A stretch of 64,000 nucleotides of DNA from an uncultured Phycisphaeraceae bacterium (lineage in GTDB: Bacteria > Planctomycetota > Phycisphaerae > Phycisphaerales > Phycisphaeraceae): positions 15,419 to 79,418 of the forward strand of contig CAZKVP010000003.1 of assembly GCA_964556215.1 (NCBI GenBank). Reading direction: 5' to 3'. Positions 10,792-53,131 of this stretch are shown piece by piece. The position numbers were made by a program, and so were the translations under genes. The stretch's first letter is position 1; each line of letters opens with the position of its first letter. The notes beneath the pieces are model-generated. The model searched no databases. It was not told the origin of the DNA and saw only the letters and a program-made list of their open reading frames with translations.

Positions 10792-10817
10792 GAAGGGGAA
10801 AATTGATTCAACACAAG

Positions 10818-10840
10818 CCGCGCGGGAGCGCGGTTTTTTT
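10818..10840 (+). terminator. Intrinsic terminator after argH
   Basis: Hairpin CCGCGC-GGGA-GCGCGG followed by T7. Confidence 0.7.
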
Positions 10841-10842
10841 AC

Positions 10843-10920
10843 AACGAGCCCCGAGCGCAAGCTCGGGGGATGACCACATGATGTGACGCCAATCCCCTGA
10901 GCTTGCGCTCAGGGCTCGTT
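10843..10920. repeat. 78-bp palindromic element, short copy of the element found in queG
   Basis: Terminal inverted repeats AACGAGCC...GGCTCGTT. Two internal 8-bp hairpins, CCCCGAGC-GCAA-GCTCGGGG and CCCTGAGC-TTGC-GCTCAGGG. The ends match 55503..55637. Confidence 0.65.
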
Positions 10921-12541
10921 AAGCACCCAACTTCTCCATCAAAACCTTACGAAAAATATTTAGCGGTGCCGACCTCCCGGTCCATAACGCAAATTGCTCC
11001 GCCGCCTGATGAAGGAACATTTCCGTTCCAGGAATGCAAATACAACCAGCGGCTTTCGCCTGTTTGAGCAGCTTGGTTTCAATCGGGTTATAGACGGTGT
11101 CGAACACCACCACGCCGGGCACAAGTGCGGGATGGTTGTCGGCGAGCGGTGAAGTGTCCACATTGGGCGTCATACCCAAGGGAGTGCAGTTGATCAGCAA
11201 ATCAAACTTCTCGTTTGTTAAAAACTCCATGGGCCTGAATTGAACGTTAAAGACTTCGGCAATTTCTTTTGCACGCTCCTCTGAACGATTAAAAATGACA
11301 ACTTGTTGTTTTTTTCCATCGCCCCGGCCTCCAGAAAATGCGGCTACGGCCGCGCGCGAAGCCCCGCCTGCACCAATCACTGCCACACGCAATTCTTGCT
11401 TTTCCCATTTACTCCAAAATGTTTTTTGAAACCCATCCATCGGGTCTTCACCCAAAGGAGGGGCCATCACATCGTCAATGGCCTCCGAAATACCTCGAAA
11501 ATCCGTGTTCGAAATCATTGGCCCATCTAATGTTGTGGCAGTCCATGTGTTTGCCGCTCCCATGCGTTCAGAAAACTCTTCTACGCATTGTTTCTTCTCC
11601 TTCCCCCACCTCAACAAATTCTCCTTATGCGGAATCGTCACCGAAGCCCCGGAGAAATCCATCCCCTCACACCCGATCCACGCATCCAAATCCCGTGCGA
11701 AATTCTCATACCCCGCCTCAATCCGCATCGGCACATAAACGCCATCGAACTCAACCGCAGAAAACCCCGCATTGTGGATCGCCGGCGACATCGAATGCCC
11801 GACCGGACAACCAATCACGCCGTAGACCTTGGTTTTTTTACCAATCGCATCCCAACGATACAAGTTTTTCATCTCCGCCAACAGCGGCTGCCCCGGCGCG
11901 GTGCCGCTGGCTTGGTCCAAAGCGGCAAAGGTCATGTAAGCGCCGCCTTTTTTGGCCAAAATCCGCGACGGCATGCCCGCCTCGCCCATGGCCAGGGCCA
12001 CGCCCGGCTTGCCGGCACCAGTGCAAACCTTGAGAAAATCCATGGCAATGGCACAATCTTCCAGACCTTGCGCCTTCCACGCCAGCTTCGGCACATCACA
12101 CAGCGGCTCTTCCAGCATCTGCTTTAACCGCTTATCCAGATCCACCGGCCTCCCGTTGAAATCATGCGCTGACAGAATCAACTTCGTCCGGCCCGCCGCC
12201 AGCAAGGGGCCCAGCACCTTGGCCCACTCCGGCTCCGCCCGCCACTTGGCCAACTCCACATCCACGGCCATCGGCGCCTTGGCCGCCGACATCAAGGCCG
12301 CATACAACGCGATGCGCTGCGCTTCCGGACCGTCAAACCCGCCGGTTTCGCACGCATGGCGGCAGGTGACAATGCAGGGCAAGGGTGAATCCGCCACCAC
12401 CGTCTGAACCAAGTCCGGCTGATCCGCCAGGCGATCCACCCGGTATTCCACGGCATCAGCCCCGCCCGCCTTGGCAAGTTGCGCCTTAGCGAGGGCTTGA
12501 TGGGCATTTTCAACGGTGATGGGAACCACAAGGAGCGTCAT
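10919..12541 (-). CDS. aroDE: Bifunctional 3-dehydroquinate dehydratase (type I) / shikimate 5-dehydrogenase
   Basis: The N-terminus LLVVPITVENAHQALAKAQLAKAGGADAVEYRVDRL is DHQase I-like. VYGVIGCPVGHSMSPAIHNAGF, NTDFRG and VIGAGGASRA are AroE-like. Start is taken at the internal ATG at 12541. Confidence 0.85.
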   Translation of the reverse strand: MTLLVVPITVENAHQALAKAQLAKAGGADAVEYRVDRLADQPDLVQTVVADSPLPCIVTCRHACETGGFDGPEAQRIALYAALMSAAKAPMAVDVELAKWRAEPEWAKVLGPLLAAGRTKLILSAHDFNGRPVDLDKRLKQMLEEPLCDVPKLAWKAQGLEDCAIAMDFLKVCTGAGKPGVALAMGEAGMPSRILAKKGGAYMTFAALDQASGTAPGQPLLAEMKNLYRWDAIGKKTKVYGVIGCPVGHSMSPAIHNAGFSAVEFDGVYVPMRIEAGYENFARDLDAWIGCEGMDFSGASVTIPHKENLLRWGKEKKQCVEEFSERMGAANTWTATTLDGPMISNTDFRGISEAIDDVMAPPLGEDPMDGFQKTFWSKWEKQELRVAVIGAGGASRAAVAAFSGGRGDGKKQQVVIFNRSEERAKEIAEVFNVQFRPMEFLTNEKFDLLINCTPLGMTPNVDTSPLADNHPALVPGVVVFDTVYNPIETKLLKQAKAAGCICIPGTEMFLHQAAEQFALWTGRSAPLNIFRKVLMEKLGA

Positions 12542-12580
12542 GCTGCGTAAGGTAGCGACTGGGCGCCGCCTCATCTTATT

Positions 12581-37265: not shown

Positions 37266-37323
37266 GGTGATCCGTTCGGCAAGCGAAGAAGGAATGGAAC
37301 GAAAACGGACGCGAAAAACGAAG

Positions 37324-37396
37324 CACGGCGGGGGGGGATCGAACCCACGACCTGCGGATTTGGAATCCGCTGCTCTACCAGCTGAGCTACCGCCGT
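37324..37396 (-). tRNA. trnW: tRNA-Trp (anticodon CCA)
   Basis: Hand-folded cloverleaf. Acceptor ACGGCGG/CCGCCGT, D stem GCTC/GAGC, anticodon stem GCGGA/TCCGC with loop TTCCAAA, T loop TTCGATC, discriminator G. There is one U-C mismatch in the T stem. CCA is not encoded. Confidence 0.85.
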
Positions 37397-44084: not shown

Positions 44085-45803
44085 CTACTTCTTCTGCTCC
44101 TTGGCCCACGCATCCTTCAACCCCACCGTGCGGTTGAACACCAACTTGCCGGGTGCGGAATCCTTGTCGGCCACAAAATAGCCCACCCGCTCGAATTGAA
44201 GAGACTGCCCCACTTGCGCTTCGGCCAGCGCCGGCTCGCATTTGCCGGTGACGGTGACCAGCGACTTGGGGTTCAGGTTGTTGCGCCAGTCGCCGCCTTC
44301 GGGCACTTCTTCGGCGTTCTCGGCGGCGAACAGATGATCGTACAGGCGCACTTCGGCATCCACCGCATGGCGGGCACTCACCCAGTGCAGCGTGCCCTTG
44401 ACTTTGCGCACATTGCCTTCAGCGTCCGGCGGTGGGTTGTTGCCGCCCTTGGTCTGCGGGTCATAGGTGCAGTGCAATTCGGTGATATTGCCGGCGGCAT
44501 CTTTGATGACTTCCTCGCACTTGATCCAGTAGCCGTAGCGCAGGCGCACTTCCTGCCCCGGAGCGAGACGGAAGAACTTCTTGGGCGCCACTTCCATGAA
44601 GTCTTCGCGCTCGATGAAGAGCTCGCGGCAGAAGGGCACTTGGCGCGAACCGGCGGCCGGATCCTCCGGATTGTTGGTCGCCTCCATCCATTCCACTTGG
44701 CGCTCAGGGTAGTTGGTGATGACCACTTTGAGCGGGTCCAGCACCACCGAGCGGCGCAGGGCGATCTTGTTGAGGTCTTCGCGCAGGCAATGCTCCAGCA
44801 ATGAGATTTCAATGCTGTTTTCACGCTTGGCCACACCGATGGTTTCGCAGAAGTTGCGCAAGGATGCCGGCGTGTAGCCGCGGCGGCGCAGGCCGCTGAT
44901 GGTCGGCATGCGCGGATCATCCCAGCCGTTGACCAGTTTCTCCTGCACCAAGGTGAGCAATTTGCGCTTGCTCATCATCATGTGGGTGACATTCAAGCGG
45001 GCGAATTCAATCTGGCGGGTGCGGTAGATGCCCAGTTTTTCCTGGAACCACTCGTAGAGCGGGCGGTGGGCCTCGAACTCCAAGGTGCACACCGAGTGGG
45101 TGATTTTTTCCAGCGAATCGCCCTGGCCGTGGGCATAGTCGTACATCGGGTAGATGCACCACTTGTCGCCCACATGCGGGTGCGACGCGTGCATGATGCG
45201 GTACATGGCCGGGTCGCGCAGGTTCATGTTGGGCGAGGCCAAATCGATTTTGGCGCGCAGAATCCGGGCGCCGTTGGGGAATTCGCCGGCCTTCATGCGG
45301 CGCAGCAAATCCAGGTTTTCCGCCGGGGTGCGCGCGCGGCCGGCACTGGGGGTGCCCGGGCGGGTCGGCGTGCCGCGCTTGGCGCTGGTTTCCTCCGCAG
45401 AGTCGTCGTCCACATACGCCAGCCCGGCCTCCACCAACTGCTCAGCCCAGGCGTAGAGTTGGTCGAAGGTCTCGGAGGCGTAGGTCATCGCATCCCAGCG
45501 GAAGCCGAGCCACTTCACATCCTCCTGGATGGCATCGATATATTCGCGGTCTTCTCTTGAAGGGTTGGTGTCGTCCATGCGCAAGTGGCAGCGGCCGCCG
45601 TAGTCGCGGGCCAACCCGAAATTCAGGCAGATGCTCTTGGCGTGGCCCAGGTGCAGGTAGCCGTTGGGCTCGGGCGGAAAGCGGGTGATGATCTGGGTGT
45701 GCTTGCCAGAGGCCAGGTCTTCTTCCACGATTTGTTGGATGAAGTGTTTGGGGGCGGGCTCGGGGGCGGCGGACGGGGTGATGGGTGTGGCTGGGTCTGT
45801 CAT
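44085..45803 (-). CDS. glnS: Glutamine--tRNA ligase
   Basis: HIGH-type motif [14 protein letters not shown] and KMSKS-type motif MMSKRKL. Confidence 0.9.
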
Positions 45804-45818: not shown

Positions 45819-45889
45819 AAGGGGGCGCAAGTTGTGGATGAAGAGAGAAACTTGCGCGTGAAAAGACCCGATGAAATCCAATCCTCATG

Positions 45890-45895
45890 TAGAAT
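45890..45895 (+). promoter_or_regulatory. -10 box TAGAAT, 6 nt upstream of the ATG at 45902; leaderless
   Basis: catgTAGAATgcccgcATG. No clear -35 box. Confidence 0.35.
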
Positions 45896-45901
45896 GCCCG
45901 C

Positions 45902-46162
45902 ATGTACGACCCCTCCTCCGAAGCCATGAAAGCCCGTGCGGAAGCCCGCCGCAAAACGATGACCCTCAAGGTTTATCGGATGGGAGAGGAACCGGAAGTG
46001 GATGAGGACAATTTGGCGATGACGCCGTGGGATCGCTTCGCGTTGGGCCTGCGCCTGACCGTCATGGGATACAACCTAGCCGAGGCCAACAATGATGAAA
46101 TTCGAGGAACTGTCCGAAGACTTCCAAGATCTGCTTGGCCAGTTCATATCATCCGGCGTTGA
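45902..46162 (+). CDS. Small hypothetical protein, possible partner of the downstream nucleotidyltransferase
   Basis: ATG lies directly after a -10-like box. It overlaps the next ORF by 71 nt. Confidence 0.4.
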   Translation: MYDPSSEAMKARAEARRKTMTLKVYRMGEEPEVDEDNLAMTPWDRFALGLRLTVMGYNLAEANNDEIRGTVRRLPRSAWPVHIIRR

Positions 46163-46577
46163 GTTCATGGTCATCGGTGGACAGGCCGTGATTTTCAACG
46201 GCCATGTGCGCGCCACCAAAGATTTGGATGTATGGATCAAGCCCACGCCGGAGAATGCCCGCCGCGTTTGGCTGGCGCTTGCGTCTTTCGGCGCCCCGTT
46301 GGCCGGGGTGACGCAAAAAGATTTTGAGTCATCGGACTTCATCTATCAGATCGGGCAGCCCCCCGCGCGCGTGGATGTCCTCACGCGCGTCGAAGCGCTG
46401 GACTTTGACCGCTCCTGGAAAAGCCACCTGTCTGTGGATTGGGACGGGCGATCCGTGGCGGCGCTTTCATTGGACGACCTCATCCAAAACAAACGCGCAG
46501 TGGGACGTCCGCAGGATTTGGCGGATGTGCACAAGCTTGAGTTGATTCGGGAGCGGATTAAGAGGGGGAAGCCGTAG
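46092..46577 (+). CDS. Minimal nucleotidyltransferase-fold protein (MNT / AbiEii-like)
   Basis: NTase motif MVIGGQAVIFNGHVRATKDLDVWI. C-terminal KRAVGRPQDLADVHKL. Confidence 0.6.
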   Translation: MMKFEELSEDFQDLLGQFISSGVEFMVIGGQAVIFNGHVRATKDLDVWIKPTPENARRVWLALASFGAPLAGVTQKDFESSDFIYQIGQPPARVDVLTRVEALDFDRSWKSHLSVDWDGRSVAALSLDDLIQNKRAVGRPQDLADVHKLELIRERIKRGKP

Positions 46578-46631
46578 GAACGCGCGAGTTGCGCTCCGAA
46601 GGAGCGGAAACCTGTGGATTTGAGGCGCAAG

Positions 46632-46656
46632 AAAAACCCGCCCTGAAAAGGGCGGG
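46632..46656 (-). terminator. Intrinsic terminator after the AIPR-like gene
   Basis: CCCGCCC-loop-GGGCGGG followed by U5 on the minus strand. Confidence 0.7.
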
Positions 46657-46698
46657 CGATGGGTAAAGGCGTAAGAAGAAATAACCGGGCTTGAATGA

Positions 46699-47976
46699 TT
46701 AGGGCTGCAAAAGTAGCAGGCTCGCACGGTCAAACAAGCCAGTGTAAACCGTTTTCGCTTTTCCCATGGTCTGCGGATTATTTTGTAGGTTTTCAAGTTG
46801 GGAAATCAAGTTTTCGACAAGTTCGGCACCATGTGCATCAAAAAACTCAAATGGATCCGCTTTCCATTGCGCCTTGGCATGTTCATTTTTTTCTGCGGGA
46901 AAAGCAACCAGCGCCCTCAGCGAAGCCAGTAGCGGAAAGAGGACGCCAGAAGGGATGACATGAGAAGATTCAACCCCGGTCAGAGGCAGCACTTTTTTCC
47001 CGTTGGGAAAAATACGGTCTTCGGTTTTTCCACGGCGGCCCAGTTTCCCTGCGGGATTCGACTCCTTGTATTTTTCATGGAATTTTGAATACACATGGTC
47101 GTGAAGCTTCAAAATGTCGGGGAGAATTTCGCTCAGAACGGCGTATCCCGAAGCTGTTTTTTCGTCCACTAGACGCTTATCCATCCGACCTTTGCTGGAA
47201 TAGGCCACCGTCGGGGCTTTTCCTTTCTCGTTGTACTCGGGGTGAAAAAGCGTGAGAATTGCAAGAATATCCAACACCGTCACGGATGCGCTCGCATTTT
47301 CTTCATAGCCAATCCGACCCTTGAATTCCGATTTTTTGTCTTCAAGGCTTTTCTTAATCCACTCGAAGTGCCCCTTGAAATCAGCCATACTCCAAGAGGT
47401 TACTTGGCGGCTTGTATTCCGGCCTTGCACCAGCCGTGAAATACGTTCGCGATCTTTCAATCCAACAATGATTTCAAGATGAACCCGTGCAGTTTTCATG
47501 TACGCGGGAATTTGCGCTTGCGTCAAGTGAGAAAAACTTTCGACCTCAAATTCCTTAGCGATTCCTGCCTGTACGCGCGCAATGACTGCATCTGTGGTGC
47601 CGCCATCCGCAACACCCTGCTGGGCCGTGTCGCCGTAGCAATCCGTCAAGAGAATTTCAACAACTTGCTTTTGCGGATCAAAGGTGACTGATTCGGCGAG
47701 AATGGTTTCTCCACGATTTGCCAAGTAGAAATCGGTTGGGCTTTCTTCGATGGTTTGCTGGATCGCCTTGGGAACAGAGCCAGTCAGTGAATCATCCGCA
47801 TGACTGCGCGGATTGACCTCGTCGGGGGACTGGCGACCAATCCAATCACTCAATGTGGGATAAAGGTGGTAGACGGAAACATCGTCTTCCACACTGATGC
47901 GCCTGTAATGGTCTTTGTCAACCGAAATACGAATGGTCTTACTGTCCGATGCTTCTAAAACGATATTTGAGCGCAT
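46699..47976 (-). CDS. AIPR-like (abortive-infection phage-resistance family) protein; tentative
   Basis: AGGAGG lies 6 nt upstream of the ATG at 47976. FYLANRGETILAES, GVADGGTTDAVI and LVQGRNTSRQVTSWSMADF resemble AIPR core motifs. A/T-richer than the flanks. Confidence 0.55.
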   Translation of the reverse strand: MRSNIVLEASDSKTIRISVDKDHYRRISVEDDVSVYHLYPTLSDWIGRQSPDEVNPRSHADDSLTGSVPKAIQQTIEESPTDFYLANRGETILAESVTFDPQKQVVEILLTDCYGDTAQQGVADGGTTDAVIARVQAGIAKEFEVESFSHLTQAQIPAYMKTARVHLEIIVGLKDRERISRLVQGRNTSRQVTSWSMADFKGHFEWIKKSLEDKKSEFKGRIGYEENASASVTVLDILAILTLFHPEYNEKGKAPTVAYSSKGRMDKRLVDEKTASGYAVLSEILPDILKLHDHVYSKFHEKYKESNPAGKLGRRGKTEDRIFPNGKKVLPLTGVESSHVIPSGVLFPLLASLRALVAFPAEKNEHAKAQWKADPFEFFDAHGAELVENLISQLENLQNNPQTMGKAKTVYTGLFDRASLLLLQP

Positions 47977-48319
47977 GATGCGCCTCCTTGTAGTTTGCGG
48001 GAGCAGGGATAGTCCCGTCTTTTTTGATCCTACCCTCGAACCCACGAAGCGACACGCTTGCGCAGGATCCCATATTCGAGGAAGGCCCCAAGATTCTATC
48101 ACAACGACGCCCATTTTCCAAAAAAATCTCGCTTCATTCAAAAATTGACACTCGCCTTCCACTCGCCCTCTTCGGGGCGCAACCTCCACCTATCTCAATT
48201 TCCACGGGTTCCCGCACCTTCGGCGCGTCCACCCGTGGCCACAATCGCCGGCCCTCTTCGGGGCCTCAATCTCCCTATAATCCCCCTCCCATTTTCCTTT
48301 CCCCCAACCCCAAAAAGCC

Positions 48320-49393
48320 GTGTCCACCCCCAACCCCCGCCGTTCCACCCACCCCGCCATCGCCGTCGTCGGCGCCACCGGGGCTGTGGGCGTTGAATTT
48401 CTCCAGGTCTTGGAGCAGCGCAATTTTCCGCTGTCCTCGATCCGCCTGCTCGCCTCGCCCCGCAGCGCCGGCAAGACCATGAAATTCCGCGGTCAGGACA
48501 TCACGGTGGAAGCCCTGACCGACAAGTCCTTCGAAGGCATCGACATCGCCCTGTTCTCGGCCGGCGGCTCGATCAGCAAGCAATACGGCCCGATCGCGGT
48601 GACCGCCGGGGCGATCGTGGTGGACAATTCCTCCGCCTTCCGCCAAACAGCCGAAGTGCCGCTGGTGGTGCCGGAAGTCAACCCCGAGCACATCGGCAAC
48701 ATCGGCTTGAAGCCCGGGCAAAAGGCCGGCATCATCGCCAACCCCAACTGCTCCACCATCCTCATGGTCACCGCCATGACCGCGCTGCACCGCGCGGCCA
48801 ACATCAGGCGTTTGGTCATCTCCACCTACCAGGCCGCCAGCGGCGCCGGCGCGCAGGCGATGGAAGAATTGAAGACGCAGACCCAGGATGTGCTGGAAGG
48901 CAAGCCGGCCAAGCCGGTCATCTTCGCCCAGCAGTACGCCTTCAACCTCTTCAGCCACAACGCGCCCATCGTGGCCAACGGCTACAACGAAGAAGAAATG
49001 AAGATGGTCAAGGAAACCCACAAGATCTGGGGCCAGGACAGCCTGCCGATGGAAGAGCGCACCCAGATCACCGCCACCTGCATCCGCGTGCCGATCATGC
49101 GCGCCCATGCCGAGAGCGTGAACGCGACCTTTGAAAAGCCGATGAGCGAAGCGCAGGCGAAGGCCCTCTTGGAAAAAGCCCCCGGCGTCTCCATCATCGA
49201 CGACCGCGCCGCCAACCGCTTCCCCATGCCTTTGGACGCGCAGCACCAGGACGACATCTATGTCGGCCGCATCCGCCGCGACATCAGCCAGCCGGAAGGC
49301 AAGGGCATTGACTTGTTCCTGTGCGGCGACCAGATTCGCAAGGGCGCCGCGCTCAATGCGGTGCAGATTGCGGAACTGCTGCTGGCCAAGTGA
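48320..49393 (+). CDS. asd: Aspartate-semialdehyde dehydrogenase
   Basis: Motifs AVVGATGAVG, IANPNCSTI and RVPIMRAHAES. GTG start. Confidence 0.95.
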   Translation: MSTPNPRRSTHPAIAVVGATGAVGVEFLQVLEQRNFPLSSIRLLASPRSAGKTMKFRGQDITVEALTDKSFEGIDIALFSAGGSISKQYGPIAVTAGAIVVDNSSAFRQTAEVPLVVPEVNPEHIGNIGLKPGQKAGIIANPNCSTILMVTAMTALHRAANIRRLVISTYQAASGAGAQAMEELKTQTQDVLEGKPAKPVIFAQQYAFNLFSHNAPIVANGYNEEEMKMVKETHKIWGQDSLPMEERTQITATCIRVPIMRAHAESVNATFEKPMSEAQAKALLEKAPGVSIIDDRAANRFPMPLDAQHQDDIYVGRIRRDISQPEGKGIDLFLCGDQIRKGAALNAVQIAELLLAK

Positions 49394-49400
49394 AGCAAAC

Positions 49401-49450
49401 ACCCAATCAAGCAAAAACCCGCCATTGGGCGGGTTTTTGCTTGATTGGGT
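49401..49450. terminator. Bidirectional terminator, 23-bp perfect stem
   Basis: ACCCAATCAAGCAAAAACCCGCC-ATTG-GGCGGGTTTTTGCTTGATTGGGT. Confidence 0.85.
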
Positions 49451-49465
49451 TTGATGGAAAAGCGA

Positions 49466-49999
49466 TTACCGCCCGCCGCCCCCACCTTGCGCCTTGCTGC
49501 CGAAATTGCCCTTGTTGCGCTTGTTGCCCTTGAAGGCTGCGCCCTTGAAGCGGGGAGCCGACGGGTTGTTGCCCTGGTTCCATTTTTGCGGACCGCGATT
49601 GACCAACGGCATCGGCGCCGGGCCGCGGCCGCCGCCTTCACCGCGCACCAAGGTTTCGGGTTTGGCATCAACCGCGGGGGCGGGCGCCGAAATCAGCGCA
49701 GCGGCCACCACCGGTGCAGCGACCGGGGCGGGCACTGGCGTTGGAATGGGAGCGACCACCACGGCGGCCTTCGCCTTGGGCGCAACTTGCGCCTCGGGGG
49801 CGGCCTTTTTTGCCGGCGCCTTGGCGATCACTTTGGCCACTGCCTTGGGCTTGACGGCCGCCTTGGGTGCGGGCTTGGCAACAGACTTGGCCGCCGGCTT
49901 CGTGGCAGGCTTGGCCACCACTTTGGCCTTCGGCTTGGCAACAACCTTCGCGGCGGGTTTGGCGGCAGGCTTAACGGGAGTTTTGGGGGCTTTGGCCAT
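49466..49999 (-). CDS. Lys/Ala/Pro-rich histone-H1-like protein with a Gly/Arg/Asn-rich tail
   Basis: N-terminal repeats AKPAAKVVAKPKAKVVAKPATKPAAK. The tail ends GSKAQGGGGGR. The opposite-strand ORFs are Arg/Gly-rich shadow ORFs. Confidence 0.6.
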   Translation of the reverse strand: MAKAPKTPVKPAAKPAAKVVAKPKAKVVAKPATKPAAKSVAKPAPKAAVKPKAVAKVIAKAPAKKAAPEAQVAPKAKAAVVVAPIPTPVPAPVAAPVVAAALISAPAPAVDAKPETLVRGEGGGRGPAPMPLVNRGPQKWNQGNNPSAPRFKGAAFKGNKRNKGNFGSKAQGGGGGR

Positions 50000-50111
50000 G
50001 GGATGGGTTCCAGAAGAGGAGGAATATGGAGATGCTAACGCAGGCGATGCAAAAAATGCGGAACTTGCGCCAAAAGTAGACGCGGACGCTGGCCGCGTCC
50101 ACGGGCAACAA

Positions 50112-50194: not shown

Positions 50195-53008
<2,814 letters not shown>

Positions 53009-53131
53009 GGAAGAATCCTTGCGGGAATGGGGTATGTGGACAGGGACGGGGATTTTAGGCCATGCCACGGGAATGTGCGTTTGCTCCCCGTGCAAACTGG
53101 TCCATGCGAGCAAAAAAACAACTTTGGTCCC

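Follow-up and report, generated by a model that had tools for sequence, protein, structure and literature searches.

Does the short, A/T-richer segment between the core genes glnS and asd in this 64,000-nt stretch of an uncultured Phycisphaeraceae bacterium (contig CAZKVP010000003.1) hold one composite defence system, two unrelated modules, or an ancestral piece of chromosome that relatives have deleted? The whole 64,000-nt stretch is called the window here, and positions are counted within it. We found the segment to be a real but fairly ordinary accessory islet. In our judgement it is likely a mosaic of two unrelated, self-contained conflict modules: a two-gene toxin–antitoxin (TA) pair resembling MenAT1 (Rv0078A/Rv0078B) of Mycobacterium tuberculosis, and a solo gene for a short protein of the AIPR family. 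Coordinates of the islet and its features are given in Table 1.

The composition of the islet was compared with that of equal-length segments outside it (mean GC content 0.636 ± 0.024 at the length of the AIPR gene). The GC content of positions 45826–48273 was 0.527 compared to 0.636 elsewhere (z = -5.6), which substantiates the earlier impression of an A/T-richer islet between glnS and asd. The AIPR gene had a GC content of 0.489 and a GC content at third codon positions (GC3) of 0.50 (z = -6.2), and none of 1180 equal-length segments outside the islet was as low. The reduction was only mild for the TA-like pair (0.583, z = -1.8). Host genes had GC3 values mostly between 0.65 and 0.87. On the left, the islet is bounded by glnS on the - strand, the actual start of which is the ATG at 45803 (572 aa), and on the right by asd, which starts at 48320 on the + strand and was confirmed to encode aspartate-semialdehyde dehydrogenase. 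The three genes originally predicted between them were all confirmed. As had also been claimed, there was no integrase among the open reading frames (ORFs) listed around the islet, and repeat analysis found no direct repeats flanking it. No tRNA gene lies within ~8 kb, the sole tRNA gene being at 37323–37396. The islet therefore lacks the combination that defines a recombinase-delivered genomic island, namely an integrase, a tRNA or tmRNA target, and flanking direct repeats.

A comparison of the glnS–asd interval in related genomes had been proposed as a check on the original prediction. Close relatives were located by protein search and cluster look-up, which yielded three related contigs: L093 (GCA_947471825.1), L175, and L174 (GCA_964628335.1); compared loci are cited by such labels throughout. 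Besides the window's own protein, there was just one close GlnS cluster (90% identity), with all others at 68% or lower. A GlnS search of genome contigs returned, among the matches listed, relatives of at most 64% identity, which were of no use for synteny. L093 and L175 are ~82% identical to the window at the DNA level across clpC–glnS. In both, asd is divergent from and directly beside glnS, with a spacer of ~330 bp, and the islet is absent. BLAST homology with these two contigs extends to window position 45766, and the pairwise alignment and the L174 match continue to ~45819–45825, that is, ~20 bp upstream of the glnS ATG. Homology with L093 and L175 restarts at 48274, where a conserved TATAAT precedes asd. 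Their ~330-bp spacer shows no relation to any islet sequence, and we therefore conclude that a replacement took place rather than a clean insertion.

The closest relative, L174 (89% DNA identity), has the same left breakpoint ~20 bp upstream of glnS, and beyond it (L174 1–5985) carries wholly different genes: a LapA-domain gene, a ferredoxin gene and hisD. Synteny with L093 and L175 also stops directly after asd, where the relatives go on to topA. The breakpoint shared with L174 and the end of synteny after asd thus mark the region upstream of glnS as a recurrent rearrangement junction. Among the genomes compared, the window genome alone contains the islet. The foreign composition of the AIPR gene and its Shine–Dalgarno site argue for horizontal gain and against loss in the relatives. 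As the islet has no recombinase, its acquisition by horizontal transfer would probably have relied on homologous recombination in the core genes on either side.

We then consider the proteins themselves. The 161-aa protein, which had been described as a minimal nucleotidyltransferase (NTase)-fold protein, indeed matched Pfam family PF19502 (DUF6036) with 32.2 bits (cut-off 23.6), a family that Pfam describes as a 'nucleotidyltransferase of unknown function'. A match to DUF2204 was below threshold, and the window protein had no match to Pfam DUF1814 (PF08843, AbiEii), for which precomputed matches exist in just a few of its homologues. The NTase family is very large, with 4868 proteins at E ≤ 0.001 among the candidates scored; no relative was found in the viral contig collection that was searched. 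When a profile of 27 family members was compared to the PDB, the sole significant match was MenT1 (Rv0078A; 8AN4, 8AN5, 8RR5), with E = 2.2e-4. Residues T42, D44, K134 and D145 of the window protein are invariant in the 27 members and were aligned by the profiles with MenT1 T39, D41, K137 and D152, which have been named as active-site residues (PMC10435456). MenT1 T39 is also the phospho-acceptor by which the antitoxin MenA1, a short protein of 68 aa (PMC10435456), silences the toxin (PMC11375011).

The AlphaFold2 (AF2) model of the NTase was of high quality (pLDDT 94.6, pTM 0.89). The top Foldseek matches were TM1012, LnuA, MenT1 and ANT(2'')-Ia, and the highest template modelling (TM) score, 0.67, was that of MenT1 in the MenAT1 complex (8an5_B; root-mean-square deviation 3.7 Å, E = 1.5e-5). 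The protein thus has an NTase core with the conserved active-site residues of the MenT/AbiEii group, and a significant although remote similarity to a characterised member, to which other small NTases come level in the structure search.

The small ORF upstream encodes an 86-aa protein without matches in Pfam, NCBIfam, PHROGs or PADLOC. Its profile matched nothing in the PDB or Pfam, MenA1 and HEPN families included, and an exhaustive search returned only ~5 related clusters. Nevertheless, an upstream ORF of 71–115 aa overlaps or abuts the NTase start in seven of seven independent NTase loci (the window included), from which we conclude that the 86-aa ORF is a real gene; an antitoxin-type small gene immediately upstream in one operon is the arrangement of MenAT systems. 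Four of the seven loci show an overlap of 53–71 nt. The partner is clearly homologous in the window, L006, L008 and L010. Gene callers of the public records mostly missed this small ORF. The whole module, -10-like box included (45889–46575), is 74% identical in DNA sequence, as a unit, to L006 and L007, where it lies beside a serpin gene. The motif GTAGAAT-N7-ATG recurs there with the same spacing, again without a Shine–Dalgarno site, and this conservation supports a leaderless start. The original description of the ORF as leaderless is therefore plausible, and its mRNA probably is leaderless, judging from sequence. Profile searches detected no homology of the 86-aa protein to MenA1 or to COG5340-type antitoxins; lacking similarity to MenA1, it would represent a different antitoxin family. 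Two further observations were made on relatives of this module. On the L006 and L007 metagenome contigs, a second, truncated NTase copy is present downstream of the serpin gene (L006 2507–2851, L007 2983–3237). In L010 (4547–7987), a homologue of the module lies directly upstream of an HATPase_c_3 (GHKL) ATPase gene, an FRG-domain gene and an unannotated gene, surroundings that look like a defence-island context.

MenAT1 is consequently the closest known system for this pair. Both have a small NTase of the same core fold with Thr, Asp, Lys and Asp at the same four active-site positions, and in both a short protein partner is encoded directly upstream, which in the window gives a compact two-gene operon. 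The window NTase differs in being shorter (161 compared to ~196 aa), in belonging to DUF6036 rather than DUF1814, and in showing its similarity to MenT1 by profile only. The partner shows no detectable likeness to MenA1 and defines a small family of its own, with a gene that overlaps the NTase start in more than half of the loci and appears to be leaderless. The two systems were likened from sequence and predicted structure; for the window pair, toxicity and tRNA modification are predictions and auto-phosphorylation is a possibility.

The 425-aa protein encoded on the opposite strand had been suspected of being AIPR-like, and this was confirmed by a match to Pfam AIPR (PF10592; E = 4.5e-16, 59.8 bits, cut-off 25) in which residues 53–384 align to profile positions 2–285 of 308. 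The motifs that had raised the suspicion (NRGETILAES, ADGGTTDAVI and GRNTSRQV) do occur in it, at columns that the family alignment shows to be invariant. A total of 194 homologues were found in a large protein collection, nearly all of them 420–480 aa long and all with PF10592; the best was 67% identical. Among named homologues, the nearest (63–67%) came from Planctomycetaceae and Gemmataceae metagenome-assembled genomes (MAGs), and more distant ones (50–55%) from Chloroflexi and Opitutaceae MAGs. The taxonomic spread is patchy. In a phage collection there was just one distant match. Many polar residues are invariant in the alignment (H37, R57, H59, R88, D124, D129, H166, E168, R186, N187, E225, E226), as expected of an enzyme, and a motif ADG[AG]T[TS]D is conserved in the short form. 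The family alignment backs the ATG start at 47976. A longer, 496-aa reading initiated at GTG was rejected, as homologues align only from Met72 on. A perfect AGGAGG had been noted ahead of the gene, and it holds up: in 64 kb, the AIPR gene is the only real gene with the arrangement AGGAGG-N6-ATG. The neighbouring glnS and asd have no Shine–Dalgarno site.

The AF2 model of the AIPR protein (pLDDT 88.6) was compared to BFVD, a collection of predicted viral structures, where it matched phage AIPR proteins (E = 3.5e-7 and 1.2e-6). One of them was a Podoviridae 'AIPR protein' (E = 1.2e-6, probability 1.0, TM-score just 0.3). Weaker matches were to GmrSD-N/DUF262, DndB and ParB/Srx (sulfiredoxin) proteins. 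These matches agree with the published assignment of AbiU1/AIPR to a ParB-superfamily nuclease-like domain common to DndB (PMC3632139, PMC3506569) and with the description of AIPR as a protein frequent in restriction–modification (RM) and MORC operons (PMC2292703). An N-terminal HEPN domain has also been ascribed to AIPR proteins (PMC3632139, PMC3506569). None was detected in the 425-aa protein, in which AIPR was the sole Pfam match. Thus, the window protein resembles the AIPR family as known (the AbiU1/AIPR group of Makarova and Koonin, or 'abortive infection phage resistance protein' of RM operons) in its Pfam membership over nearly the whole length, in its structural match to phage-encoded members, and in having distant homologues that adjoin dnd, methyltransferase and GHKL ATPase genes. 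It differs in being a short single-domain form that is mostly solitary among housekeeping genes; its own neighbours are glnS, asd and the NTase pair, not an RM operon. Likeness to the DndB and DUF262 (GmrSD N-terminal) ParB-like proteins is limited to a weak structural resemblance (BFVD E = 0.005–0.06) and to the occurrence of some short-AIPR homologues within dnd clusters; the window protein has no Pfam DndB or DUF262 match, and neither the islet nor its flanks contain dnd genes.

We surveyed the neighbourhoods of AIPR homologues in 82 loci (contigs with two homologues plus 80 metagenome loci; 510 kb), which formed 56 groups at 90% identity. No conserved partner of the short AIPR clade was found in these 56 groups. 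Clustering of flanking ORFs gave no family present in more than four groups, and when the 150 nearest neighbours were annotated with Pfam and PADLOC, the commonest was DndB, in three. DndA/DndC, D12 methyltransferases, SNF2/ResIII helicases and PemK toxins were found in two to three groups each. Many neighbours were housekeeping genes such as those for aminoacyl-tRNA synthetases, citrate synthase, SAM synthetase and ribosomal protein L20, and close homologues were mostly solitary among such genes and outside RM operons. The lack of conserved neighbours therefore suggests that the short AIPR clade is a self-sufficient single gene that is only at times recruited to modification-based defence loci.

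Some of the more distant homologues (41–42% identity) were observed inside DNA phosphorothioation (dnd) clusters (L141 and L145; also L142 and L144). Their neighbours there were a genuine DndB (PF14072, 440 bits), DndA/C/D, and a GHKL (HATPase_c_3) ATPase or an HD phosphohydrolase. We considered whether the AIPR protein might be the DndB of these clusters and rejected this, as true DndB sits beside the AIPR gene; the location hints at a role as a modification-linked effector there. Full-length homologues of 25–28% identity were encoded on 5.6-kb Firmicutes plasmids with little beyond replication genes. On the 5.6-kb Enterococcus plasmid, the remaining annotated genes were for the RepB replication initiator, a hypothetical protein, an epsilon antitoxin and a divergent helix-turn-helix (HTH) regulator. 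In the small Firmicutes plasmids L176 (NC_019385.1) and L177 (CP120665.1), the short AIPR gene is paired with a divergent 93-aa HTH regulator, and no regulator of this plasmid type was seen in the window.

With both families identified, the suggestion of a composite defence module made up of the NTase pair and the AIPR gene could be weighed. In such a module the NTase might, for instance, sense or regulate while AIPR served as the effector. They are adjacent in a single 2.4-kb accessory segment that relatives lack, both families are tied to abortive infection or TA biology, and the AIPR clade does occur at times within multigene defence loci (dnd clusters, GHKL ATPase and methyltransferase genes). 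However, a hidden Markov model of the NTase family had no match in any of the 82 AIPR loci, although all positive controls were found, and no AIPR gene was present among the called genes of six independent NTase-homologue loci. Within the islet, the NTase and AIPR genes are convergent with a terminator between them and differ in GC content (0.58 compared to 0.49), and the NTase pair exists elsewhere as a separate DNA-homologous unit. The composite idea is contradicted by this lack of co-occurrence, by the differing composition, by the way the genes are oriented and by the ability of the NTase pair to move separately, and we give it very little credence. An ancestral origin of the segment with later deletion in the relatives, its genes then being ordinary lineage-specific housekeeping or regulatory genes, also seems improbable, if somewhat less so. 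It would fit with just three related contigs that are mutually discordant upstream of glnS, with the absence of an integrase, tRNA or target-site duplication to mark an insertion, and with the presence in relatives of ~300 bp of unrelated spacer instead of a clean empty site. The low GC content and GC3 of the AIPR gene speak against it, as do its strong Shine–Dalgarno site, which no other real gene of the window has in perfect form at that spacing, the patchy distribution of its homologues across Planctomycetaceae/Gemmataceae and Chloroflexi/Opitutaceae MAGs, and the 74% DNA identity of the NTase module to a unit in an unrelated context.

The assignment of roles within the NTase pair was subject to a further alternative, in which the NTase is not a toxin but either a small-molecule NTase similar to LnuA or ANT(2'')-Ia, or an antitoxin of the MNT type with a toxic small partner. 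In MNT-HEPN systems, the minimal NTase is the antitoxin. The Foldseek E-values of TM1012 (2.8e-6), LnuA (1.3e-5) and ANT(2'')-Ia (1.7e-4) are on a par with that of MenT1, and the Pfam annotation goes no further than 'nucleotidyltransferase of unknown function'. Nevertheless, the sequence profile picked out MenT1 rather than any antibiotic NTase; all family members keep the MenT1-specific Thr (phospho-acceptor T39), the Lys and the C-terminal Asp; and a tightly coupled, overlapping small upstream gene in every locus is typical of TA operons and not of resistance enzymes. The partner had no Pfam match, hence no HEPN family was detected, and some members of the NTase family have precomputed AbiEii (PF08843) matches. 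We consider this alternative unlikely, and the reading of the pair as a MenAT1-like TA module is retained.

A number of points weigh against the two-module reading and temper it. Only three related genomes were available, so that the choice between gain here and loss in the relatives depends on composition. The similarity of the NTase to MenT1 is remote (16–18% identity, profile E just 2e-4), and as TM1012, LnuA and ANT(2'')-Ia score about as well in Foldseek, there is room for a small-molecule substrate. Partner homology is weak in L178, L181 and L179 (16.5, 15.4 and 10.9 bits, respectively, in hmmsearch with filters off on three pre-specified candidates), and the antitoxin role of the 86-aa protein is deduced from position and size only, with no likeness to MenA1 or any solved structure. 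The AIPR protein had no PDB match, either by sequence profile or by Foldseek on the model, and its ParB-like affinity comes from BFVD matches of low TM-score. A full-text search for DUF6036 returned no paper in the library searched, and the papers found on AIPR proteins show no biochemical mechanism for them. Finally, of the predicted defence-type content, the part that stood is the link of each module's family to abortive infection or TA systems; recognition as a known system did not follow, as PADLOC calls neither module (no match for AIPR, a weak AbiEii match with E = 0.007 for the NTase). None of the three islet proteins had an informative match in NCBIfam or PHROGs.

Table 1. Features of the islet between glnS and asd (window positions)
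Feature	Position	Strand	Remarks
Variable accessory segment (islet)	45826–48273	none	Lies between the glnS start and the asd promoter region; defined by homology breaks and low GC
TAGAAT -10-like box, candidate leaderless promoter	45889–45894	+	7 nt upstream of the small-ORF ATG
Small protein, 86 aa, upstream NTase partner, predicted antitoxin	45902–46162	+	Conserved position; 71-nt overlap with the NTase start
DUF6036 minimal nucleotidyltransferase, 161 aa, predicted MenT1-like toxin	46092–46577	+	PF19502, profile, AF2 model
Terminator hairpin, G+C-rich, separating the convergent NTase and AIPR genes	46636–46657	none	9-bp stem, 7 G–C pairs
Short single-domain AIPR-family protein, 425 aa	46699–47976	-	Pfam PF10592
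AGGAGG Shine–Dalgarno site	47983–47988	-	6 nt upstream of the AIPR start codon
Candidate promoter of the AIPR gene, TTGGAA-17-TAGAAT preceded by TG	48093–48121	-	Consensus scan only
Three-hairpin element	48165–48264	none	Two exact GCCCTCTTCGGGGC 14-mers on either side of inverted repeat 48202–48238

The non-coding parts of the islet contain several hairpins. The terminator hairpin between the NTase and AIPR genes is followed by a T-run on the - strand, and an analogous hairpin follows the NTase in L006. At the right edge, two copies of the 12-mer CCCTCTTCGGGG had been reported at 48166–48177 and 48252–48263; they are exact and extend to the 14-mer GCCCTCTTCGGGGC (48165–48178 and 48251–48264). 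The element that they enclose lies within the variable segment and folds better than shuffled sequence (z = -3.9 for the + strand, -3.3 for the - strand). Rfam, searched at the gathering threshold and at permissive E-values, gave no RNA family in the islet, the three-hairpin element included, and no copy of the element was present in 176 other loci examined. The 14-mer does not qualify as a dispersed repeat: besides its two exact occurrences in the window, it was found in only one of the other loci, L001, a contig 100% identical to the window. As to its role, the three-hairpin element may insulate transcription from the divergent promoters of AIPR and asd, or it may have been left behind by whatever delivered the AIPR gene. 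Inspection by eye also revealed a perfect inverted repeat of 9 bp with a 15-nt loop (GCGCAAGTT...AACTTGCGC, 45826–45858), which the repeat tool did not report. It sits at the left end of the variable segment, with the glnS start on one side and the promoter of the small ORF on the other.

Outside the islet, the region following asd (49389–50000) contains a conserved 36-bp palindrome at 49408–49443 and a 177-aa Ala/Lys/Pro-rich ORF (49466–49999, - strand) without a Pfam match, followed by a 972-aa ORF (50195–53113, - strand) that by eye resembles aconitase. A second low-GC patch was observed at 10800–11600 (GC content 0.49–0.52, compared to a mean of 0.636). The patch spans the 3' half of an aroD–aroE fusion gene (10919–12574, - strand; DHquinase_I and shikimate dehydrogenase domains) and may be a recombined or foreign segment within a core gene.

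Taken as a working model, the islet would consist of two modules set back to back immediately upstream of glnS, at a junction that is prone to rearrangement. Module A (45889–46578) would be a two-gene MenAT1-type TA operon with the DUF6036 NTase as the toxin. By homology to MenT1, the NTase would most likely add nucleotides to tRNA 3' ends and so block aminoacylation and translation. The 86-aa protein, encoded upstream with an overlap into the toxin start and translated from a probably leaderless mRNA, is the predicted antitoxin and would bind and silence the NTase. Module B (46579 to ~48121) would be the solo short AIPR gene, whose composition is clearly foreign and which has a promoter-like site of its own as well as a strong Shine–Dalgarno site. 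Its product is a putative single-polypeptide enzyme of the DndB/DUF262/ParB-like superfamily, which most likely acts alone as an abortive-infection or restriction-type factor against invading DNA.

In terms of novelty, the assignment of DUF6036 and the AIPR clade are modestly new; both modules belong to known kinds, and no current ideas are overturned. A compact, HEPN-less and mostly solitary AIPR clade has been delineated, and it could serve as a minimal model for AIPR function. For the uncharacterised DUF6036 family, the analysis offers a concrete, testable assignment: tRNA NTase toxins similar to MenT1, paired with small antitoxins of a new family. More tentatively, with a chance that we put at slightly below even, the several thousand DUF6036 NTases in public data, together with their upstream partner, would constitute an undescribed and widespread branch of the MenT/AbiEii-type tRNA-NTase TA systems that is smaller than any characterised member. 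In this lineage the partner appears to be leaderless, and the new antitoxin family may or may not use MenA1-like induced auto-phosphorylation of the conserved Thr. For the organism, the islet illustrates how small defence and TA cargo builds up at rearrangement-prone junctions near essential genes in a poorly sampled lineage, without a recombinase of its own.

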